NCBI GenBank assembly: GCA_964016885.1
Contig: OZ024751.1
Location: forward strand, 47,616,001-47,680,000
Reading direction: 5' to 3'
Length of the DNA: 64,000 nucleotides
Source: Eledone cirrhosa
Lineage: Eukaryota
Numbering within the stretch: the first letter of the stretch is position 1; each line of letters begins with the position of its first letter. Positions 8,290-62,935 of the stretch are shown piece after piece. The position numbers and the translations under genes were made by a program. The notes below the pieces were generated by a model. That model saw only the letters and a list, made by a program, of their open reading frames with translations, did no database searches and was not told where the DNA came from.

Positions 8290-8660
8290 TTAGTTACGTC
8301 CCTTTACGATCTGAGTTCAAATCCCGCCGAGGTTGACTTTGCCTTTCATCCTTACGGGGTCGATAAAATAAAGTACCAGTAATGTACTGGGTAATTGCTG
8401 GCCTTGTGCCTAAAGTAGAAACAATTATAATAATATATGTAGTGGATTGCATTATAATAATATATGCGGTGGATTGGCAGTATCGGTAGAGAGTCGGGCA
8501 CCATGCTTTGAAGCATAGAGTTACGTCCCTTTATGATCTGAGTTCAAATCCCGCCGAGGTTAACTTTGCCTTTCATCCTTACGGGGTCGATAAAATAAAG
8601 AACCAGTAATGTACTGGGTAATTGCTGGCCTTGTGCCTAAAATAGATACAATTATAATAA
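8290..8660 (+). mobile_element. Two head-to-tail SINE copies, first one 5'-truncated
   Basis: Match to SINE consensus incl. B-box-like GAGTTCAAATCCC and tail GGCCTTGTGCCTAAA.TAGA.ACAATTAT. Confidence 0.85.
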
Positions 8661-8892
8661 TATATGTAGTAAGACACACAGTAAATCGTGTGTCTAATAT
8701 TACGAGGGTTGAGGAACCACATTTGTTTGAAATATTTAACCATGAAGCAGACAGAATGATAAAATAAAATAAAATTATATTATGCAAACCGCCTCAATAA
8801 CAATTAAATCTTTTGACTTACGGCACACAAGATGATGAATTCATTTTTGTGTGTGAACGTTAGTACTAGGTGTTTGTGGCATTTAATTAGAT

Positions 8893-8974
8893 TCTGTCGC
8901 TGATGATGCCCGTGGATTATCTGTTACAAACACACTCAGGGCGAAACAGATTAATCCCTAATCTGTCCGAGAGA
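8893..8974 (+). ncRNA. Type I hammerhead ribozyme, family H
   Basis: TCTGTCG-CTGATGA-t GCCC...GGGC-GAAA-CAGATTA atccc TAATCTG-TC-CGAGAGA; GUC triplet at 8965-8967. Confidence 0.8.
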
Positions 8975-9207
8975 TTTAATTGTTATTGAGGTGGTTTGTA
9001 TAATTTAATTTAATTTTATTTTATCATTATGTCTGCTTCATGGTTAAATATTTCAAACAAATGTGGTTCCTTAACCCTCGTAATATTAGACACACGATTT
9101 ACTGTGTTTCTTACTACATATATTATATATATATATTCATATATATATGTATATATATGAATATATATATATATATGTACATATATGGATATATATATAT
9201 ATATATA

Positions 9208-10470: not shown

Positions 10471-10535
<65 letters not shown>

Positions 10536-10851
10536 AGATAAGCAGAACAAGTAAAATTCAACCAATTTTTCAAAATAAATCAAAATTAATTTAAAATTAA
10601 AATTAATCAAAATTAAAAAATATAATATAAATATTTACCTATTCAAATGGCCCTAGAGAACAAATCTGTCGTTCTATCTAGCTGCTATTTTTTTAGTGGC
10701 GACTATAGACAACAAGTCTGTGATTTCCCGCCTTCACTTCACACCGGCGTACATACGGGTCACTTTTACGACCTTTCAGGCCTGTGTTAGCTGGGGACGA
10801 GGTCATATATTTTATCGTTCCTGGGGTTTTTTAACCCTAGGAAAGGAAAAT

Positions 10852-10933
10852 GCTTCTCTGATGATCTTTGTTTTTCCATTAATATCCATGTGATATCTAA
10901 TGTTTTGCAAAGTGAAACTGTACAGTAAGGGCC
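10852..10933 (+). ncRNA. Type I hammerhead ribozyme, family F
   Basis: GCTTCT-CTGATGA-t CTTTG...CAAAG t-GAAA-CTGTACAG-TA-AGGGCC; palindromic ACTGTACAGT stem III; GUA triplet 10925-10927. Confidence 0.75.
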
Positions 10934-11273
10934 ATTTGAATAGGTAAATATTTATATTATATTTTTTTAATTTTGATTAATTTTAATTTTAAATTAATTT
11001 TGATTTATTTTGAAAAATTGGTTGAATTTTACTTGTTCTGCTTATCTTGATATTAAGTTCTGGTATATCAAATTATTACCATAGAACCACCTTGAATCAT
11101 AGACGACCTATGTATTTCTGGGGGTACCTTGTACCCTTAGATATATTAACTTTATATATATATATATATATATAAAGTAGAGTTGAGATGGAGGGTCTGT
11201 GGTTTTTCTCACATGTGAGAAAAACCACGGACACTCCATCGTGAGAAAAACCACAGACCCTCCATCTCAACTC

Positions 11274-12154: not shown

Positions 12155-13590
12155 AGTGTAACTTAGTGTTACTGCAGGTTCACCCGGGGGTGAGCACTCG
12201 ATGTTTAGTTTCACTTCTGTGTTGAGGTGTAGCTATACAGAGTGTAATATATATATATATATATATATATTATTATCTATAAAAGGCAAATTTTTGTGTC
12301 TGTATGTATGTTTCAATTTTATACATTTACACAATTCCAAAAATATTGAATGAATAATTAAGCAGAATGTTTACAAATATTCTAACTTGGGTCATGGGCG
12401 AACTTATTGGGTAAAAAATGCCACAATTACGGAAAAATCGTTTTATTTCAACAATAGATGATTTCTCCTCTCTCATATGATATACGTTTCCTATATCTAC
12501 TCCCTTCATCACCTCCCCTTAAAATTGCTACCTTCTCTTATAAGTGTTTGTGAAAAAGAGAAACATTGAAAAAAAACATATACACACATATATGTGGGTG
12601 CATACACACACATATATGTTGGTATGGTTACGATTGACGTCATAGAAACAGGAACGCGGGAATTTCAATCAATCAACGCATACACAGTTTGTTTTAGAAA
12701 TAACAATAGCATATAATGATAAAGAGGGATATAATGATAAAGAGGGAGTGAGAAACAAACAGACACACTAAAAGACGGATATATGTGTGTGTGTTTGTAT
12801 TAGCGCGTTCAAAATCCATTTCGAAGCTGACTTTCATTTACTAAACTGTAAGTTTTTCAATCGGCCTTACACTTTCAAACTATATTTTTCTGTATAAGTA
12901 ACTTTAACCCTTTATTTTCGACATAAAAATACACACATACATACAAATACCTGTAAATTTTTTTTGGGGGGCCTTTCTTATCAATCTTTTTACATTCAAT
13001 TATCAGCCTTATACTTTCAAAGTCAATTTTTATGTTGAAGTAACTTTCAACCTTTAATACATACATACATACATACATACAAACATACATACATACATAC
13101 ATACATATACACACATACATACATATACACACATACATACAAATACCTGTCACTTAATTTACACACACATCGGCCTTACACTTTCATACACACATACATA
13201 CATATACACACATACATACATATACACACATACATACAAATACCTGTCACTTAATTTACACACACATCGGCCTTACACTTTCAAACTAAATTTTTCTGTA
13301 GAAGTAACTTTTAGCCTTTCTTTTCGACATAAAAATACACACATACATACAAATACCTGTAAATTCTTTTTTGGGGTCTTTCTTATCAATCTTTTTACAT
13401 TCAATTATCAGCCTTATACTTTCAAAGTCAATTTTTATGTTGAAGTAACTTTCACCCTTTATTTTTCGATACCCATTTACTTACTAACATTTGTATCACA
13501 ACAACAATAACAATATTCATAAACAGACAGTAGACTTTCAAAGTCAATTTTTCTGTAGAAGTAACTTTCACCCTTTCTTTTGGACATAAA

Positions 13591-14290
13591 ATGCCACCTA
13601 AAAAGAGAAGTCGCTTCAGTCGACATACCGCGTCAGCAGTGGCGCAAAAGGCTACTATAGCAAACGAGTCCTCTGAGGAAAATGCTTCAAGACTTTCACA
13701 GACAGCCTTACGTTCAGCAGAATGTCGAGCCGCTGAAAGTTTCCAACAGCAAACCGCACGCCTAGCCAAAATGGCTTCATACCAGGCTTCTTCCAGGGCT
13801 TCAGAGAGCCGTGAACAAAGGTCGAAGCGCCTGGCTAGAAACGATGCGACTAATGCTGCTTCCAGGTCTTTGGAACGTTTAAAACAACGGACGGCTCGCC
13901 TTCCTATGAACGCTGTGGCTATGACTACTTCCATGGCTTCTGAAGATGCAGACGCGCGGTCCATTAGCATTGCAAATGTTGCTTCTGCTATTGCTGCCAG
14001 ACCTTCCCACCAACCACACGACCAATGTTCTACGTTCAAGCGTAACAGTCGACGACGAGAAGCTGCACGCGGTGTGACGAGCCCCAACAGCCCTTACTGG
14101 CACCTACGGGCTTTCAAGTATGAGCAAAACGTTAATTACTCGATGCGCTCTGACATAAATATAGGCGAGATGCGCTTCAATTGCCAATTCTGCAATGCTA
14201 CAAAGTGGGCTGGGGAGTCACCTTGCCCCCTCTTCCGGAACCGCCAGAGCCTTTGAAGGAACTACTGACTGGTTATACCTCAAGGTCAAA
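13591..14290 (+). pseudogene. Helitron RepHel N-terminal region (Arg-rich repeats, zinc-finger-like motif)
   Basis: ORF MPPKKR...RLARN.. repeats then CQFCNATKWAGES; frameshifted continuation LPPLPEPPEPLKELLTG typical of RepHel N-termini. Confidence 0.75.
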
Positions 14291-14321
14291 AAAAAAAAAA
14301 CCCTGATCCCCCCAATAAAAA

Positions 14322-15565
14322 CGCTCCTGGGGGTACCGGAAAAACTTTTGTAACGAATTTGATTCTCGCTAAGATTCGTCAGGAGAAAAAAGTTGCGTTG
14401 TCCGTTGCATCGTCCGGGATCGCTGCTACTTTGCTGCCGGGAGGCAGGACAGCACATTCAACCTTTAAACTCCCCTTGGATTTAATAAAAACTGAGACAC
14501 CAACATGCAATATCAGCAAGAGTTCACACAAAGCTCTGGTTCTCAAAAGATGTTGCCTCATTGTTTGGGATGAGTGCACAATGGCACACAAGGGTGCCCT
14601 TGAGACATCGGATAGGGCCCGGAAAGACATTAAGGATTCTACGGCTCCTATGGGTGGCGTAACCCTTCTGCTATCAGGGGATTTTCGGAAAACGCTGCCT
14701 GTCATCCCCAAATGGACAAGAGCTGATGAAGTGTGTGCCTGTCTTAAGTCGTCCATGTTGTGGCTCCAGGTGAATAGTTTGTACCTGAGCACAAATATGC
14801 GTGTTCATTTGCATGATGACAACATGTCTGCAGCACAGAACATTTTAGCACTTGGTGAGGGCAAGATCCCTGCGGATGACAAGGGCGGCATAGCAATCGA
14901 CACCCTGTGCAACATTGTGAGCAGCCCTTCTGACCTTTGGGAAGCAGTTTTTCCTAATGTCTCATCTAACTTTAAAAACCTCGATTGGCTCAGCGAAAGA
15001 GCCATCCTTGCTCCGAAAAATACCATGGTTAATTTTATTAACGAGCAGCTGATTGAGAAGATTCCCGGTAAAGAGCACATCTTCAAATCAGACCCCGACG
15101 ATATCGTTAATTATCCGATTGAGTTATTAAATCTCCTTGAGCCCCCAGGGCTCCCACCTCACATTATTAAGCTTAGGGTTGGCTGTCCCATTATGCTAAT
15201 AAGTAACTAAAAAGCAGTGCAACGGTACTCGCATGGTCGTCAAGTCACTGACACCCACTTGATTGAGGCCACCATTGTAACGGGGTGCGGAAGAGGGGAG
15301 AATGTTTTCATTCCTTTTCCCCTCGGCGTCAGATATCCCGTTCGATTTCCGGCGATCCCAATTCCCGGTGAGACCATGTTTTGCCATGTACATTAACAAG
15401 TCACAAGGGCAAACATTGTCGGTGGCGGGCATCCATTTGGGGGAGCCATGCTTCTCCCATGGCCAACTTTATGTTGCCTGTTCCCGCGCAGGGAGCAGGA
15501 ATGGACTTTTTGCTTACTCTCCTCAAGGGATGACACGCAATATCGTCTACAAAGAGGTGCTATAG
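14322..15565 (+). pseudogene. Helitron PIF1-family SF1 helicase domain, frameshifted
   Basis: APGGTGKTF (Walker A), ASSGIAATLLPGGRTAHSTFK, LIVWDECTM, GDFR, GLPPHIIKLRVGCPIML, QFPVRPCFAMYINKSQGQTL, FSHGQLYVACSR, TRNIVYKEVL. Confidence 0.92.
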
Positions 15566-20616: not shown

Positions 20617-20687
<71 letters not shown>

Positions 20688-20833
20688 GTATATATATATA
20701 CATATGTAGGAGGTGAGTTTTATTGTAGTACAATAAAGCAATGCAGATATCGGATAAGAAGCACTCTACAGTTTGTAGGACTGGAGTATACATAATATAT
20801 AAGAACAAAAGATGGTTAAAGGAGTTCCATATA

Positions 20834-20900
20834 TTTTATTATGCGCATTTCAAAAACAAATATCATCATGCAATAATATTTGTGTTTTCATCAGATAAAA
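20834..20900 (-). ncRNA. Type I HHR in the PLE pLTR, family E
   Basis: TTTTAT-CTGATGA-long stem II-GAAA-TGCGCA-TA-ATAAAA; palindromic ATGCGCAT stem III. Confidence 0.8.
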
Positions 20901-21914
20901 CAGGAGGACATGATATGAAGGTTAAAAAACACTTGTGGATAGTTCAGTTTTAAATCAACATATGAGAAGTATTTTTAGATTGATGTGTGATATTGGGAAA
21001 AATATTTTATTTAGAGGGGGGGGGGAGGATGAAAAAAGAAGGAGATGAGAGTGAAGGTGGAGAGGGAGGAGTATAGTGAGGAAGGATGAGATAGGAGGAG
21101 AGATGGGTGATAGAGAGAGAGAGATAGTTTTTATAACTGAGAAAGATATATTGTTTTACATAGAGAGGTTGAAAACCGTTGGAAGATAATGTATAAATTA
21201 AAAGAATTTGAAAATTAACGAAGAGAAAAATATGTGCGAAGAAAAAGAAGGAGTTAATATGTATTGAGAATAATGAGTTAGATGATAGGGAGAAAGGAAT
21301 AATGAATTGCGGATGAATATTCTAACGTCAAAAAAAATGTATATGTTTACGAAGGATTTTTACAAGGTGATATAGAGTAAGAATGTGTTGTATTATGTAA
21401 TAATTGATTCTATGTTAGGCAAGAGTGAGAAAAGGTACAGATTAGGGGTTAGATATTAGAAGAGAAGAAAAGGAAGTGATAAATATGGGTGATGTAGAAA
21501 GAGTAAACAAGTATTATAGAAATTTGAAAATTAACGAAGAGAAAAATAATGTAAAGTTAAGGTTTGTATATTGAAGGATTTGAGAAAAATAATGTAAAGT
21601 TAAGGTTTGTATATTGAAGGATTTGATAATATGTGCGAAGAAAAAGAAAATGTTAATATGTATTGAGAATAATGAGTTAGATGATAGGGAGAAAAGATTA
21701 ATGAATTGAGGATGAATAATCTAGCGTCAAAAAAAATGTATATGTTTACGAAGGATTTTTACAAGGTGATATAGAGTAAGAGTAATGAGTAAACAAGTAT
21801 TATAGAATGTATAATAACCTTTGAAATAAGGTAGAAAGATGGGTATATTTTTAAAAGAAGTGTATATATATGTGCCTTTGAGAAAAAGATTCTAAATTGA
21901 TAAAGAATTGAATA

Positions 21915-23440
21915 TTAGCTGTATACTTTGTGAAATGTTTTATGGAATTTATGCAAGCAGATAGAAAACAAGTCAGTGCGTCTATTTATTATAGAATCTA
22001 GATTAGAGATAATGGTAAATTTTTCATTTAGACAGAGATTGCAGATTTTAGATAGAGAACTGTTCAAGTGTGGAGACGCAGAAGAAACCTTCTTCCAAAA
22101 GATGCTATATTTAATGTTTTTGTCTTTCAAGGACCATATGAGTTCTGAGAGAGCCGTGTTGGTTCTTTTAAGTTTGTATTTAAAAGACGAATGATGGTTA
22201 TAAAGACGAGCTTTAAAAGAGGTGGAAGTGGAGCCAAAATAGGTGAAGGAATTGGTGTCAGTTATAACTTTACATTCGCAAATTAAGTTTTTATCAAGGC
22301 AATGGTTGTTGAGAGGACATTTATTTTTAATAGGGCAATTGCAATTGCAATTGCAATTAGAGAGATTATTAATGAGTGACCTAGTGTTATCTATAGAAGG
22401 AATTGGATTGGAGAAGTTGTTTGCGATAGGAATAATAGTTTCTTGATTTAGAATGGGATTATGAACATTTAGCGAAGTTGTGTTTGACGTTGTATTTGGG
22501 TTTGTAGATATTAGCCTAGGGTTTACAATGGCGTCGGGAGTACTATTATTATGAAATTCAGTGTTGGAAGGAAGAGATTTAGTATTTAGTATTTTATTGT
22601 TGTGTTTAGAGATAATGTTGGAAATGTTGGAGGATGTAGAATAAGAAAATTTTATGGTGTGTTTGTTAAATATTTTACTATAGATATGTGAGGGAGGGAA
22701 GCATTTATTTAAGGTACTAAAGAATAATTTAGGAATATTGTTATTAATAGAGATGGAGAAAGGAGCATTATACCAGATTATGTTTTTGTATCTAGGTCTT
22801 TTATTAAAGTTATTGGAATGATCATGATTAATTATTCTACTGTAATTTCTTCTAGAATTTGTTTCTTTACTATATTTGATTTTATCAGGATAGCCGGCTT
22901 TAGAAAGCGCGTTATTATAGTAATTGGCGTTAGCATCAAAGATGTTTTTATTAGAAGATAGGTTAGATATTCTTTTTCCAATATTACTAACTATAGCATT
23001 CTTGATATTAGTAGGATGGTTAGATTTAAAGTTAATATAATTTAGGTTCTCATTGTTTTTATGGTAAGGGTAATATAGGCCAGTGTCAAGATTAAGAGAT
23101 ACATCCAAGAAATTAGCTAGTTTGATACTGTTATCAAATTCAATTTTTAGGTTATGTTGGTTAAAGAGATTACGTATATTGTTCTTAATAATATTAAGGT
23201 TAACTATATTGCAAATTAAGATAGTAAAGAGTCCATCGTCACGATAAATTCCACCGCGAAGTTGAGGAATTTTCCGACTCAAAGAGTTCAAAATAAAGAT
23301 ACCAATTAAATCAGTCAATTGGGATGAATCGGATGCTCCAATTGTGATGTCGAAGTTGTTAGAGGTATCGGCTCTGGTCCAATATTCGTTGTTGAACTCT
23401 AGGATGGTTTTACGTGTGGTGAGAATGATGTGAAGTTCAT
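21915..23440 (-). CDS. Penelope-like RT C-terminal half, linker and GIY-YIG endonuclease (5'-truncated; frame stays open upstream of the listed ORF start)
   Basis: FDITIGASDSSQLTDLIG, GIYRDDGL, NFLDVSLNL, SNHP, WYNAPFS, CNCPIKNKCPLNNHCL, YFGST..FKARLYNH, CNLCLNEK: pattern matches Naiad-clade PLE proteins as recalled. Confidence 0.85.
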
Positions 23441-23817
23441 CTAACTCATTATTCTCAATACATATTAACTCCTTCTTTTTCTTCGCACATATTTTTCTCT
23501 TCGTTAATTTTCAAATTCTTTTAATTTATACATTATCTTCCAACGGTTTTCAACCTCTCTATGTAAAACAATATATCTTTCTCAGTTATAAAAACTATCT
23601 CTCTCTCTCTATCACCCATCTCTCCTCCTATCTCATCCTTCCTCACTATACTCCTCCTTCTCCACCTTCACTCTCATCTCCTTCCTTTTTTCACCCCCCC
23701 CCTCTAAATAAAATATTTTTCCCCATATCACACATCAATCTAAAAATACTTCTCATATGTTGATTTAAAACTGAACTATCCACAAGTGTTTTTTAACCTT
23801 CATATCATGTCCTCCTG

Positions 23818-23884
23818 TTTTATCTGATGAAAACACAAATATTATTGCATGATGATATTTGTTTTTGAAATGCGCATAATAAAA
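23818..23884 (+). ncRNA. Type I HHR in the inverted pLTR copy, family E
   Basis: CTGATGA 23824-23830, GAAA 23867-23870, UA 23877-23878; reverse complement of 20834-20900. Confidence 0.8.
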
Positions 23885-23941
23885 TACATGGAACTCCTTT
23901 AACCATCTTTTGTTCTTATATATTATATATACATATATATA

Positions 23942-24345
<404 letters not shown>

Positions 24346-25596: not shown

Positions 25597-25898
25597 ATAA
25601 TTGTATATAAAAGAGAGATAAACACAGACATATACATATTTGTGTTCAAATCGTAAGGGACTAGGTTCGCTAAGGTGAAAAGAATACTAACTATGGACAA
25701 TAGGGTTTGCCAGACTCAATTTAAGAATAAATCAAGAAAATAAATACAAACCGGAATTGTGGTAACTACTGATCACCCATACAGCGTTTGGCTATGTTGT
25801 TTCATAGTTAGTATTTTTTTCACCTTAGCGAACCTGGTCCCTTACGATTTGAACACGTATATGTATATATCTGTGTTTATCTCTCTTTTATATTCAAT

Positions 25899-42029: not shown

Positions 42030-42106
42030 AGATATATACATGTGTGTGTATGCATATATAAATATATACATATATATATATATATAATATATATATATAT
42101 ATATGT

Positions 42107-42180
42107 ACATATACATATATATATATTTTATATTTATATATATAAGAATATATATATACATATATATATATATATAAGTT

Positions 42181-42218
<38 letters not shown>

Positions 42219-42430
42219 TAAAATAACAGATTAAAGTTTAAGCAAAGAATCGCTGCTTTCACCCTTAACGGGGTCTTCTGAAGACCCCGTTAAGGGTGAA
42301 AGCAGCGATTCTTTGCTTAAACTTTAATCTGTTATTGTAATAAACATTTGCTCTACGGTTCTTATATATTTGATATATATTTATCCTTATCGAGCCCTCT
42401 TTGGATTTTAGTCTTCAAATTTATTATTAT

Positions 42431-42513
<83 letters not shown>

Positions 42514-42891
42514 GACTTTGATAACTTTGATAACTTTGATAGGTTTCGGCCAGTATTGGCCCAGGCCATGTCTAACTTAATAGTACCACCTGGCGAAGTC
42601 TTACAAATCAGTGTTTGGGCACCATGGCCCACTCGAGCAGAGAGTTATTGGTTACGGAGGCATATCCGGGTGTAGGAGGCTTATCCGGGATTTCTTGAAG
42701 GAATTTATCCAAAGACTTCTTGAACTTGATGGGGTGTGTCTCTGCTTTGATGTGTTTTGGTGTAATGTTAAAGAGTGCAGGGCCAATTGAGGTGAAATAA
42801 TTGTGCCGTATTGTTGTATATATACATATATATATATTTTATATTTATATATATAAGAATATATATATACATATATATATATATATAAGTT

Positions 42892-42929
<38 letters not shown>

Positions 42930-43141
42930 TAAAATAACAGATTAAAGTTTAAGCAAAGAATCGCTGCTTTCACCCTTAACGGGGTCTTCTGAAGACCCCG
43001 TTAAGGGTGAAAGCAGCGATTCTTTGCTTAAACTTTAATCTGTTATTGTAATAAACATTTGCTCTACGGTTCTTATATATTTGATATATATTTATCCTTA
43101 TCGAGCCCTCTTTGGATTTTAGTCTTCAAATTTATTATTAT

Positions 43142-43226
<85 letters not shown>

Positions 43227-43530
43227 GACTTTGATAACTTTGATAACTTTGATAGGTTTCGGCCAGTATTGGCCCAGGCCATGTCTAACTTAATAGTACC
43301 ACCTGGCGAAGTCTTACAAATCAGTGTTTGGGCACCATGGCCCACTCGAGCAGAGAGTTATTGGTTACGGAGGCATATCCGGGTGTAGGAGGCTTATCCG
43401 GGATTTCTTGAAGGAATTTATCCAAAGACTTCTTGAACTTGATGGGGTGTGTCTCTGCTTTGATGTGTTTTGGTGTAATGTTAAAGAGTGCAGGGCCAAT
43501 TGAGGTGAAATAATTGTGCCGTATTGTTGT
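42107..43530. repeat. Near-identical tandem duplication, period about 713 bp
   Basis: e.g. GACTTTGATAAC at 42514 and 43227; each unit has a family B palindrome and a LINE 3' end. Confidence 0.85.
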
Positions 43531-57523: not shown

Positions 57524-59697
57524 ATGGCTACGAAAAAGAATTTTCACAAGTCACTCCCACTCATTCCGTCTTCTTCCTCAATCGTCACTACAGCAGGAGA
57601 AGATTGTCTCTCTCCCTCCCTTCTCTAAATGTGTCTCTCTCCCTACCTTCTCTTTCGCAAGTGACGCCAATAAAGAAAAATAGTTTACAAAATCACGTGA
57701 AAAACATGGAACATTTCTCCACGACGACGACAACGACGAAAAAGGTGTGCGGTTAATACGAAAACCCATTTCATTCGTCTGACGTCATGAATAATAGCAG
57801 TAGCAGCCGTAATAACAGCAGCAGCAGTAACAGTGACAAGGAAAACAACAGTAGCAGCCGCAACAGCATCAGCATCAGCATAAACAACAACAGCATTAGC
57901 AGCAACAGCAACAACAACAGCAGCAGCAGCAACAACAACAACAACCACAGCAACAGCGGCGGCGGCAGTAGTCGTAGTATCTGCAGCAACAACAAAAGTA
58001 ACAGCAGCTCTGACGACAACAACAACAACAGCAGCAAAGAAAAACCAATTTCGTTTGCAGGTATCGCAAAGAACCTGGAAACCATCCTCATAACAAATGA
58101 GGAATTACAGGAAGCGAAGAAGATGGTGGCGAAAACCGGACACCGAGCAATCTGCAAGGCAGCCGAAACATTTTTCGAAACCCAACAGCACTGTACGGTC
58201 ACGTACCGTACAGTAAGCACAAAATCCCGTAGGGTTGAAAGAGCCACAGAGGCTCAAATACAAAAAGCCTTAGGGTCTGTGTGGCAGCGGAAAACGCATA
58301 TCACCCGAGGCAAGAAATATGCCACCGTAGACGTCCTTTTTGCCATACCCCAGGAGGCAAAGGCTCAATCCTTAGTGACCCTAAGGAGCGAGGAAATAGT
58401 GTTGGTGCCCTCCTACTGCGGGCAAAACATTGTGAGGGTCAAACTAACCCACGTCCCTCCTGGGATGGCCCCTTCTTGGCTGGCCGTGTCTGTCCTCGTC
58501 GGAATCGAGGACAAAACAACTGTACTGCAAGTACAGAAAAAAGTAAGAGAAGATTGGGTCGGCACCTCCATTGAGATGTTAATCCAAACCAACCAGGAGT
58601 GCATCGAAGCTATCCCGGATGTGATAGACTTCGATAACGGCACTCAACTGCCCATAAGTGTTGAGGGCAAACGCCCGAAATGCTTTCGCTGTGGATCGAA
58701 GACTCACCTCAGGGCCTTCTGCAACGAGAAGACCCTGAGAGAGGAGAAAACCCCCTCCTTCTGAAACCGGCTCCACGGCTACCAGCAACAGGACAAGCGG
58801 CAACAAGGAACGATAGGTCCGTGGCACCCATACCCACACCACGGAAATCAAGAACAGCAGCAACAATGGAAGTATTAACAACAACAACAGTAATACCAAA
58901 TGCAGCTGAAACAGAGACTCCACTGCAAACATCACCAACAACAACAAGTGAAAGAGTGGAGCTGGTACCCCTCCCTGACCTCACAGAATCAGACATGGAG
59001 TGTGAGGTGCGAGAGGGATGGCAAAAGGTCGCAAGAAGGCACAAACGAAGAAGCAGCGCATCGTCGCCTTCGAAAAGGGAGGAAAGAAATGAAAAAAGGG
59101 TAAAGACTACTGCAAAGAGAATCACAGCAGCAACACCACCAACACCATCACCACCCACACTAGCACCACCATCACCACCGGCGACAACCCCACCGCCAAC
59201 AACAACAACACCTTCAACACCACCACCACAAGCACCAACATCGCAAACACAACAACAAAACACACACACCCAGCAACAACGACAAGAAAATAGCAGAACC
59301 ACACCCACCCCAGAAAAACAAATGCACGGCAATAAATACACACAACAAGAAACTAATGACTTACATAATTGAACACTCAGACATTTCACAGCACGACTAC
59401 ATAATACCAGCACCAATAAAAACGCCAACGAACATAAGACTGGTAAAAATAGCACAGAAACAATACACAAACGTTAAAACGAAATTCCCCAACGCAGTTG
59501 GTGATTTCAGAGACCTAGGAGGGACTCTCAACCGGAGAGTATATTCGGACATACTCATAGAAGAGCCGACGACCAGCCGAAGGGACGATTCAACGGTCCC
59601 TTCACCAGACGATCAAGTGAAAAGGATGGAGAAACCATCCTTCCTCTACGAAAAGTACGGTAAGTGGTCTTTCCCATCTTTTCCACTCCATTTCAAT
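57524..59697 (+). pseudogene. LINE ORF1 (gag-like, CCHC knuckle), broken into several frames
   Basis: Probable start MATKKNF at 57524; Ser/Asn-rich tract; SFAGIAK; CFRCGSKTHLRAFC at 58681-58722; EGWQKVARR and Pro/Thr-rich tail in the next frame. Confidence 0.75.
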
Positions 59698-62600
59698 ATG
59701 ACCTCACTCAGAATAGGCAGCATAAATGCGCGTGGCTTGGGGTCGTCATGGAAGCAGGGCCACCTGCTCAACAACCTCAGGTCACTAAACATAGATGTAG
59801 TGGCCATCAGCGAGACCAGAATCTCCGAAGCACGGGCCTTTGCACCGATCTTCGGCGGCTACGATGTGTACGCATCTCCCAGCCGTCCTGGATCGAAGGG
59901 AGGAGTTGCTGTGCTTTTTCGGAGAGGTTTGGATCTCGCCATACGGGCCATCTTCCTGGACCCAGAGGGTAAGTTGGTGGTGCTGGACGTGACCAGCAGA
60001 GACGGGCAAGCTTTCAGGCTAGTGGCCGTCTATGCCCCGACGGGAGCAGGGCGGCCTGATTTCTTCCGGCGTCTGGAGACCTTTCTTGGAACGTTCCACT
60101 CTTTAGTGTTAGTGGGCGACTGGAACGGGATCTTAGATGAACGCTGGGACTGTGTGGGATTAGCGGATAGGGGAGGAGGGTGCAAGAGCCTCACCAACCT
60201 GTTCAGGCGTTTTGAACTGTCTGACAGGTACCGATTGGATTTCCCGAATGTGCCAATGTGGACTTGGACAAATCTCATAGGGTCATCCAGATCATATCTA
60301 GATAGAGTATATTGTAGGGAAATAGATAGGTCTAGCATAGGCTGTCCACAATTCAAGATAGTCAGCTACACGGACCACAAATTCGTGATCTGTGTGCTTG
60401 ACTTAGATAGGCTTCATAGACGAGGACCCGGCTACTGGAAGCTAAACGCGTCCTTACCAGCAAACAAGGCCTACAGAGACCGGATTAAGGAACTAGTTAA
60501 GCGGGCGTTGACGGGGGCCATCGTCAACAACAAGTGGTGGTTTGCTCTGAAAAGAGCGATTAGAATAGAGTCCATTAGGTTTAGTAAGGCTTTAGCAATA
60601 GAGAAAAATAGAGCAGAGGGAGAACTAGTTAGAAAATTAGACGAGGCGCTTAGCAAAGGCATCGCGACCGACGTACTTGCGGCAAAATTGGCCCTTGACC
60701 AATTCTTCAATGCAAAGCACGAAGGCTGCGTTGTCAGAGCTAGGGTGCGTGCTCTCAGACACGAGGGAACGAAAGCCGTTCAATGGGCTCGAGTGGCGGA
60801 GGCGCGTCGTGGCAACAAAGCCACGATCCGGTCATTGGTGGACCACGACGGGCGCATGCTACTCGATCCCGGGCAAATGTGTGAAGCTTTTCAGCGACAC
60901 TTCGCTCAGCTGTTCGGGGGCAGCGGTGGGCCGGGTCGAGGGATGGACTTTAGTGTCTACCTCGACGGACTGCCGCGGCTCTCGGCCACCGAGGCCGAGT
61001 GTTGCGAAAAGCCGATAACAGCCGCTGAAGTACGGGAGGAAATGACTGGCTGCACAAGGGGTAAATCGCCTGGTTTGGATGGTATGCCCTATGAACTTTA
61101 CGTACAGATGCCAGACTTGTTCGGAGGCCTCTTGGCGGACGTCTACTGCAACTGGCAACAGAACGGGAGAATTCCCAGCTCTGTGTGCCGAGGAGCGGTG
61201 GCACTGCTGAGAAAGGATCCGAACAAGCGGGATAACATAGATAATTTCAGGCCCATAACTCTGCTAAACACAGAGTTCAAGATTTTGGCCAAGGTGCTAG
61301 CAAAGAAGTTGGCGCTTGTCGTTGGTGGTCTGGTGGGAGAGGCGCAGACATGAGCCATTCCCGACAGATCCATCCACGACAACCTCCACCTCATGCGATA
61401 CATCGTAGAGAGGGTAACTAGGGAACCTGGCACGGGTGGGTCCTTAATCAATTTAGATCAGTCGAAAGCTTTCGATAGGGTCGACCATCGTTACCTAGCG
61501 GCAGTCCTGAAGGCGGCTGGCTTTGGGCCCGTCTTCAGAGGCTGGATCGCTGCCATGCACAGCGACATCTGCTCTGTGGTGAGAGTGAACGGTCACCTTT
61601 CGGAACCGTTCAGCATCATGCGCTCGGTCCGCCAAGGATGTCCCCTCTCGTCCCTCTTGTACGTATTGACTCTCGAGCCATTACTGCACAAACTGGAGAC
61701 GTTGAGGGGCGTCCCGCGCGAACTAGGATGCGGAAGATCCGTGTCAGCATATGCCGACGATGTCACCGTAGTGGTGTCGAACGCCAAACACATCGAGCGA
61801 TCGGCACTACACTAAGAGAATACGAAGCGGTGACAGGAGCAATGATCAACCAGGAAAAGTCAGTGGGCCTGCAGCTCGGCACCTGGAGAGGCCGGTCCAT
61901 GCCGTCCAACAGCGTCGTCGGACGCTGGACAGACGGACCGGTTAAATTGCTAGGGGTCTGGTTCGGTCCGGACCTCCAGACGGACAAAAACTGGGACGAG
62001 ATGATGAGCAGGGTGGCTTCTCTCACCCAGAAAGGTCGAGCGGAGGTGGCTAACGCGTACATCGCGTCTGTCATCTGCTACCGCCTGACCGTCGTACCTT
62101 GTCCTAAGCCCCGCCTGACTGCGCTGGAGCGTTTGCTCTTTCGCTTTTTGTGGAAGGGACGCGCTCCGATGGTCAGGCTGTCCATCTGTTGTCAACACCC
62201 GCTACGTGGAGGGCTGGGCATGCCGTGGCTGATGATGCGCAGACACGCGCTCAGGCTACGACATCTCCACCTCTTCCTCGACGGTGATCAGGTGTGGTCG
62301 CCGTTTGCTAGACACGTATTTCCCCAGCTCGTTTCCTTGACGGAGCTGCAGTCCTGGATCAAACTCTAGGCGTCGACGAAAATCAACTAGCCAATCTCTT
62401 CGGAAGAACTTTAGGGCCGGGGCCTATGGACAACTTCCAGAAATCTCTGGCCTGGCAGTGCTACCGAGGAGCCTTGCCAGTTCGGGATAAACTCTACAGG
62501 CATGGAGGTGCCGTCAGCCGGGCATGTCCGAGATGCGCGCAGGGCGACGAAACTGTCCTGCACGCACTCGTCCAGTGTCCGAAAATTGCTGACCTGTGGG

Positions 62601-62935
62601 TTTATGTCGAACACCTGCTGTCGCGTGTAGGACGGATCCGGCTATCATCTGAGTCCATCGTGAGGATTGCCCCGCCCTCTTCCTTTAGCCGGGAAGGGCA
62701 GGCAGTTTTTATCTGCCTGGTGGCCATGGCGAAAGAGATAGTATGGTGGACACGTTTAAAAGGGCTGAAGACGAGCACTTACCTCTTCGGTGATGCCCTG
62801 ATTTACTTTTTCAAATTTCATTTGAAAAGGAAAATCAGAGTAGAGAGGGAAGTGCTCTCTTCCCAGCATTTGGGTGAGAGAAGCAAGAATGGCCCGAGTG
62901 AATGGGCCTACTCTGAGTATGTATCTGTAAATTAA
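59698..62935 (+). pseudogene. LINE ORF2: AP endonuclease, reverse transcriptase, zinc finger
   Basis: SINARGL, ISET, GDWN, SYLDRVY, TDHK (APE); KSPGLDG, FRPITLLN, LDQSKAFDRVDH, SVRQGCPLS, YADD at 61750; CPRC..ETVLHALVQC; in-frame TGA at 61351 and frameshifts near 61800, 62370 and 62870. Confidence 0.93.

Follow-up and report, generated by a model that had tools for sequence, protein, structure and literature searches.

Inverted arms are a known feature of Penelope-like elements (PLEs), whose anatomy is described in PMC8557442. According to the accessible part of that account, insertions of EN+ Penelope-like elements comprise partial tandems and an inverted, 5'-truncated copy joined at its 5' end, with a tail at one end only; they occupy microsatellite targets without a clear target-site duplication and carry a hammerhead in the repeat, and non-autonomous head-to-tail forms are described for the Chlamys elements. 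The tail, 30–40 nt long, is ascribed there to endonuclease resolution, and that part of the source states neither a rule of one arm per site nor ribozyme-cut ends. For the PLE Poseidon_Ac, both target strands were nicked and extended in vitro at AT-rich DNA, and the tail is defined by two internal start sites of the reverse transcriptase (RT). Cleavage was unnecessary for insertion in vitro, and the accessible sections of the paper report no RNA-seq reads beginning at the cut (PMC11167929).

Two further systems are close. Metazoan non-LTR retrozymes are non-coding tandem units of low GC content with one type I hammerhead each, for which a circular RNA template and mobilisation by PLEs have both been proposed (PMC7229834; bioRxiv 10.64898/2026.07.22.740005); junctions are not analysed in the available portions of these accounts. 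The 5' ribozyme of R2 provides a precedent for a ribozyme cut that sets the genomic 5' junction, and R2 junctions vary through chance microhomology in cases where the ribozyme cuts at the very end of the element; this ribozyme is, however, HDV-like, and R2 uses one fixed rDNA target and a linear template, unlike the family analyzed here (PMC3774820, as far as its accessible text goes).

The locus lies in a 64,000-nt stretch of the Eledone cirrhosa genome (contig OZ024751.1, positions 47,616,001 to 47,680,000), hereafter the window, and belongs to a repeat family designated F. Self-BLAST and local alignment show that positions 10530-10654 are the reverse complement of 11053-10928, with 125 of 126 columns identical and a single difference between the arms, an extra T within a T-run. 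T10654 pairs with A10928, while A10655 and A10927 remain unpaired. Since the unit itself has a T just before 10655, T10654 is shared with the partner arm, and the short arm ends at +1 or +2, in a numbering relative to the predicted cut (+1 = 10928). The features of the locus are as follows.

10472..10533, no strand: (TA)n target repeat, left flank
10530..10654, minus strand: short arm, unit +1 to +125/126; its 5' end lies at the predicted cut (+1 or +2), and its 3' end, at priming site A, passes into (TA)n
10654..10655, no strand: joint of the two arms, head to head (5'-to-5'); microhomology of 1 nt (T)
10655..11155, plus strand: long arm, unit -272 to +228 (501 of ~520 nt); it spans the intact hammerhead, and its 3' end, at priming site B, passes into (TA)n
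10848..10937, plus strand: type I hammerhead motif, predicted cut 10927/10928
10848-10857/10928-10937, plus strand: hammerhead helix I, 9 of 10 pairs
10858-10864, plus strand: hammerhead core CTGATGA, followed by a long helix II
10914-10917, plus strand: hammerhead GAAA
10917-10926, plus strand: hammerhead helix III, a 10-nt palindrome ACTGTACAGT
10925-10927, plus strand: hammerhead triplet GTA
11054..11155, plus strand: "tail" between the two fixed 3' ends, ~100 nt, present in one arm only
11152..11173, no strand: (TA)n target repeat, right flank

The earlier note on this DNA had described near-perfect inverted arms at 10531-10654 and 10928-11052, with complementarity ending at the first base past the scissile bond after GTA (10925-10927), and both statements are borne out by the alignment over 10530-10654/10928-11053 and by the arm end at +1 or +2. 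The element extends beyond the span given there (10531..11052), as the right arm continues for ~100 nt to 11155. No target-site duplication is discernible in the (TA)n flanks. The window copy lacks 19 nt of the unit (+229..+247), which are present in tandem copies and as a joint in DNA reads. In RAD-seq data of other samples and in fragmented contigs, none of the reads or contig pieces listed spans the junction.

Judged from its sequence, this is a type I hammerhead motif with a predicted cut site: it has the CUGANGA/GAAA core, an NUH triplet and three helices, and its core columns are near-invariant among the ~155–160 copies compared. Position 10.1-11.1 is U/U, where G-C is usual. An Rfam search of the locus gave no match at the gathering score, and the minimum-energy fold of the motif in RNAfold is not the hammerhead (z +1.76). 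The triplet is GTA or GTT, depending on the subfamily, GTT being found in more than half of the read-through copies. Variants on the 3' strand of helix I turn G-U into A-U pairs, and the 5' strand is constant. Hammerheads with a short palindromic helix III are described as poor ribozymes when monomeric and better ones as dimers (PMC4209133, accessible part), and GUC and GUA are given as the fastest triplets (PMC3138052, likewise).

A DNA search of the 3.0-Gb genome yielded 1763 first-look candidates for family F, of which 40 were scored, and two exact-anchor searches gave 336 and 624 matches. The unit of ~520 nt (units of 510–533 nt) is non-coding, circularly permuted and tandem, and arrays of three and eight units carry one hammerhead per unit, as expected of a non-LTR retrozyme. 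No ORF of at least 120 aa is present over the locus, which thus lacks the RT and GIY-YIG ORF of an autonomous Penelope-like element. Family F shares with metazoan retrozymes the tandem non-coding organization, the single type I hammerhead per unit and the low GC; its unit compares with 170–400 nt in PMC7229834 and 51–972 bp in bioRxiv 10.64898/2026.07.22.740005, within the accessible text of each. Unlike them, it consists mostly of dispersed partial copies.

The 3' ends of family F are fixed at two internal positions that give rise to the tail, as in an element mobilized by PLEs. Priming site A corresponds to +125, where 146 of 283 arm records end, and priming site B to a second cluster of 3' ends at +227..+236, ~100 nt away; both run into (TA)n. 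Tandem and inverted 5'-truncated copies lie in microsatellites, so that the family resembles EN+ Penelope-like insertions in its partial tandems, its inverted copy joined at the 5' end, its one-sided tail, the hammerhead in the repeat and the absence of a clear target-site duplication. It differs from them in lacking an ORF and in the length of the tail, ~100 versus 30–40 nt (PMC8557442, accessible part). Family F is in all probability a non-LTR retrozyme with PLE-type integration.

Among 66 head-to-head pairs, 51 combine one A end with one B end, one is A+A and none is B+B; in the remaining 14, at least one end lies at neither A nor B. The start sites at the two ends of an insertion are therefore different in 51 of the 52 assignable pairs. 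The pair sample is enriched for +125 ends, so the absence of B+B is weak evidence, and the scarcity of A+A is not affected. In L1 twin priming, two target-primed cDNAs are likewise joined head to head via microhomology, one primer lying on the poly(A) tail and the other at variable sites, and the two segments do not overlap. In family F, by contrast, both priming sites are fixed and the arms overlap. Poseidon_Ac resembles family F in that its tail is delimited by two internal start sites of the RT, whereas no strand difference in start site was seen for it in the accessible part of PMC11167929. This A/B pairing rule is a more solid new point than the ending at the cut site. It was not found in print, supplements aside, and those of PMC11167929 may bear on pairing.

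The two arms of an insertion, and the successive passes of one arm, come from one template sequence, because they belong to the same subfamily and share rare variants. Paired arms have 291 common and nine rare variants in common against 140 differences, with 0.3 rare variants expected by chance, and successive passes of tandem arms have 12 rare variants in common versus 0.4 by chance. The latter fits a circular template, but local homogenization as well. Arms longer than 560 nt account for 42 of 121 and those longer than 1000 nt for 7 of 121 among the matches listed. An extreme case is a head-to-head insertion at 4565-8800 of L290 (G000:C3:352303000-352312999), with both outer ends at fixed sites and one arm of ~4.1 kb that passes eight hammerheads with intact cut sites in units 14–23 differences apart, which suggests rolling-circle reverse transcription.

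The family F locus is very probably a twin-primed insertion of the PLE type. According to the proposed scheme, a Penelope-like RT/GIY-YIG protein acting in trans would nick both (TA)n strands, and one cDNA would be primed from each cut target end, one at each of the fixed sites A and B. The template RNA would be a circle or a multimer, because arms pass up to eight intact cut sites. The cDNA ends would then lose a few bases and join via 0–5 nt of microhomology. In the window copy, one cDNA would have run 125 nt to the cut and the other 501 nt through the intact cut, the short arm perhaps stopping at +1 because the enzyme ran off the 5' end of self-cleaved RNA.

The window also contains an autonomous-type Penelope-like element (20618-24081) with 670-nt inverted repeats carrying a hammerhead of another family, D. 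Between these repeats lies a minus-strand ORF of 531 aa (21915-23510), in which we see by eye RT (YRDD) and GIY-YIG-like motifs and which we take to be Neptune-like; a Pfam search of this ORF gave no match. Self-BLAST found no sequence in common between this element and family F. RT/EN fragments occur near some family F copies, none of them shown to be contiguous, and no autonomous partner specific to family F was identified around the copies examined. Other features of the window include, by eye from translations, fragments of Helitron-like helicases and a LINE whose ORFs encode endonuclease and RT (13534-15210 and 57757-62935), as well as a 716-nt direct duplication with 99.6% identity (42104-43530), which is either a recent tandem duplication or an assembly artefact.

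To count 5' ends at the predicted cut across family F, an anchor at +11..+30 was used and mismatches were required further upstream. All 25 + 58 rows were examined, and 12 internal indels or jumps, two complex rearrangements (L037 and one L052 arm), two out-of-range rows and duplicates of one place were dropped; L275 and L276 were entered as two separate ends. In 624 anchored passes, with the window excluded, 42 ends fall at 0..+10 and nine at -1..-18, a 7.6-fold excess per base (p=1e-10). At an estimated capture of 0.85, the stop rate is ~0.72% per nt at 0..+10, 0.10% per nt 5' of the cut and 0.23% per nt unit-wide, and ~7–8% of passes stop in the 0..+10 zone. The modes are at +10 and +6/+7, and exact +1 endings form no peak: six of the 42 zone ends fit the exact cut, without enrichment over +2..+10 (p=0.69), and at +1/0/-1 the excess over the unit-wide rate is not significant (p=0.13). 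The dense stretch continues to ~+33, and the pile-up is thus a plateau with an edge rather than a spike; in a hand count, ends away from TA repeats number ~10 in the 30 positions +12..+41 and 6 in the 12 positions 0..+11, almost the same density. Apparent peaks at +11 and +18 were discarded with the use of subfamily references, the former being partly a helix I subfamily variant and the latter alignments running into TA repeats.

In a second family F sample, comprising 98 of 100 listed rows of 336 matches with one duplicate dropped, the step was not reproduced: only 3 of 121 arms among the matches listed end at 0..+12 (0.18% per nt), under a filter that loses short arms and with one case merged. 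Head-to-head arms mostly end elsewhere in the unit than at the cut. In a hand count of 22 head-to-head junctions with an end in the zone, both arms terminate within 0..+15 in seven (p=0.004 if 10% is assumed). Junctions fall twice on a 4-nt palindrome located 3' of the cut, and none falls on the 10-nt palindrome located 5' of it. Zone stops were found in 21 of 214 GUA copies versus 16 of 396 non-GUA copies, mostly GUU (p=0.007; p=0.04 if all five unassigned ends are GUU). Part of this excess arises because GUA arms are shorter everywhere (0.27 versus 0.20% per nt) and more often belong to head-to-head insertions (36/56 versus 15/65). In one of the rows dropped from the end count, L055 (G000:C24:3199893-3202946), a deletion from the cut removes helix III and GAAA, possibly by a template jump from the cut.

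The same design of end counts, with internal indels, duplicates and edge rows removed, was applied to five other hammerhead families from the flanks (D, K, E, P and G). The hand counts covered the first 100 of 1031 (D), 2156 (K), 550 (E) and 1449 (P) matches, and 31 of 31 for G. The step is mild in D (downstream/upstream 1.7-fold per base, p=0.03) and absent, in these same sets, from K (27 versus 33, 1.3-fold per base), E (21 versus 28, 0.95-fold), P (24 versus 24, 1.0-fold) and G (6 versus 15–16). A script check of the first 30 rows gave 6 versus 9 for K, 15 versus 5 for D and 6 versus 15 for G. Families E and G had been predicted to have the strongest step on the basis of a stable helix III, and the prediction failed in both. 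Ends at +1/0/-1 exceed expectation only in family E (11 versus 5.9, p=0.03, first 100 of 550 matches). Family P contains a symmetric junction on its own helix III palindrome, 5' of the cut. In the window and loci L001-L209, (TA)n serves as the target of at least 10 distinct families of type I hammerheads. In several of them a short stem containing ACTCC/ACTCT follows immediately 3' of a fixed 3' end and is possibly a shared recognition signal.

Among the 13 hammerhead cut sites in the window, an inverted arm stopping just 3' is present only at the family F locus (+1) and at 8967 (+5). The latter belongs to a head-to-head insertion of family G (8653-9131; GUC, long stable helix III), whose short arm would stop at ~+1 if two transitions were allowed. 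The same geometry had been claimed for families H and D, and possibly at 25803, as a sign of a general integration route. With the labels H and D mapped tentatively, these counts do not confirm it: the arm at 25803 ends ~20 nt from the cut at 25780, and four of the five other families show no step. What stands of the cleavage fossil proposed in the earlier note is the joining of two cDNAs of one template sequence head to head, one of them through the intact cut, and, in the genome-wide comparison of endpoints with cut sites, a family F pile-up in the 11 nt 3' of the cut; the exactness at +1 does not. The ending at the cut in the window copy is thus genuine, as is the pile-up specific to family F in which it lies, but such endings are not exact, nor do they extend to the other families in general.

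Run-off from cleaved RNA is our leading explanation for this pile-up, although we stop just short of calling it probable. In its simple form it is disfavoured by the flat profiles of families E and G, and the same edge would be predicted if, during twin priming, the RT stalled on uncleaved or circular RNA at the folded, possibly protein-bound ribozyme. The latter explanation, which we consider possible but rather unlikely, fits the span of helix I (+1..+10), which coincides with the pile-up zone and its modes away from +1, as well as the passage of most arms through intact cut sites, including the eight in the ~4.1-kb arm. It also fits the step in GUU copies (16 versus 7, p=0.002). However, helix I is weak in F (~-3 to -4 kcal/mol) and stronger in the stepless K (~-5 to -8), which argues against a simple stall, and, at coarse resolution, no similar accumulation of ends is seen at stronger hairpins located elsewhere in the unit.

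Base composition is a less likely explanation still, and we find it doubtful. The AT-rich stretch +7..+90 would promote fraying and, through microhomology, joining to either (TA)n or the other arm, the +1 end of the locus being a matter of chance. The extension of the plateau to ~+33 and the flat or nearly flat profiles of the five other families agree with it, as do the pooled +1/0/-1 ends of the six families, 44 against 34.3 expected among the matches listed (p=0.06), and the fact that the locus was picked from the 13 hammerheads of the window. Nevertheless, the GC-rich stretch 0..+5 is enriched too (11 ends versus 9 upstream, p=0.004), and 29 of the 42 zone ends do not adjoin TA repeats. 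An assembly artefact or a subsequent local inversion of DNA as the source of the fold-back is highly improbable. The locus does lie between long TA runs, where assemblies can fail, but one 3'-end rule holds across 66 distinct head-to-head junctions, and the arms of the locus are distinguished by a single indel and by the fixed site at which each ends.

Under twin priming of the PLE type, the end of the short arm is a possible trace of self-cleavage in the cell, and only possible, because family F copies often stop at the cut while those of four related families do not. A single locus does not prove cleavage in vivo, since the ending at the cut site is family-specific and ambiguous. A search directed mostly at openly available literature found no publication on PLE arms ending at a hammerhead cut or on twin priming in PLEs. 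The role of the hammerhead in Penelope-like elements and the origin of their tandem and inverted structures and one-sided tail are described as open in the accessible parts of PMC8557442 and PMC11167929.

Family F is young and offers junctions that can be counted, and the pairing rule, together with a PLE-type signature on a retrozyme, bears on both the role of the hammerhead and the origin of the tandems, inverted copies and tail. More tentatively, and in our view with the probabilities against it, the junctions may record, in the genome, self-cleavage of the hammerhead in germline cells: a PLE dimer would prime one cDNA from each of the two fixed sites on a rolling circular RNA, and upon self-cleavage of the circle both cDNAs would run off at the cut and be joined head to head. 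If this were true, the one-sided tail of PLEs and their inverted pLTRs would both be explained.
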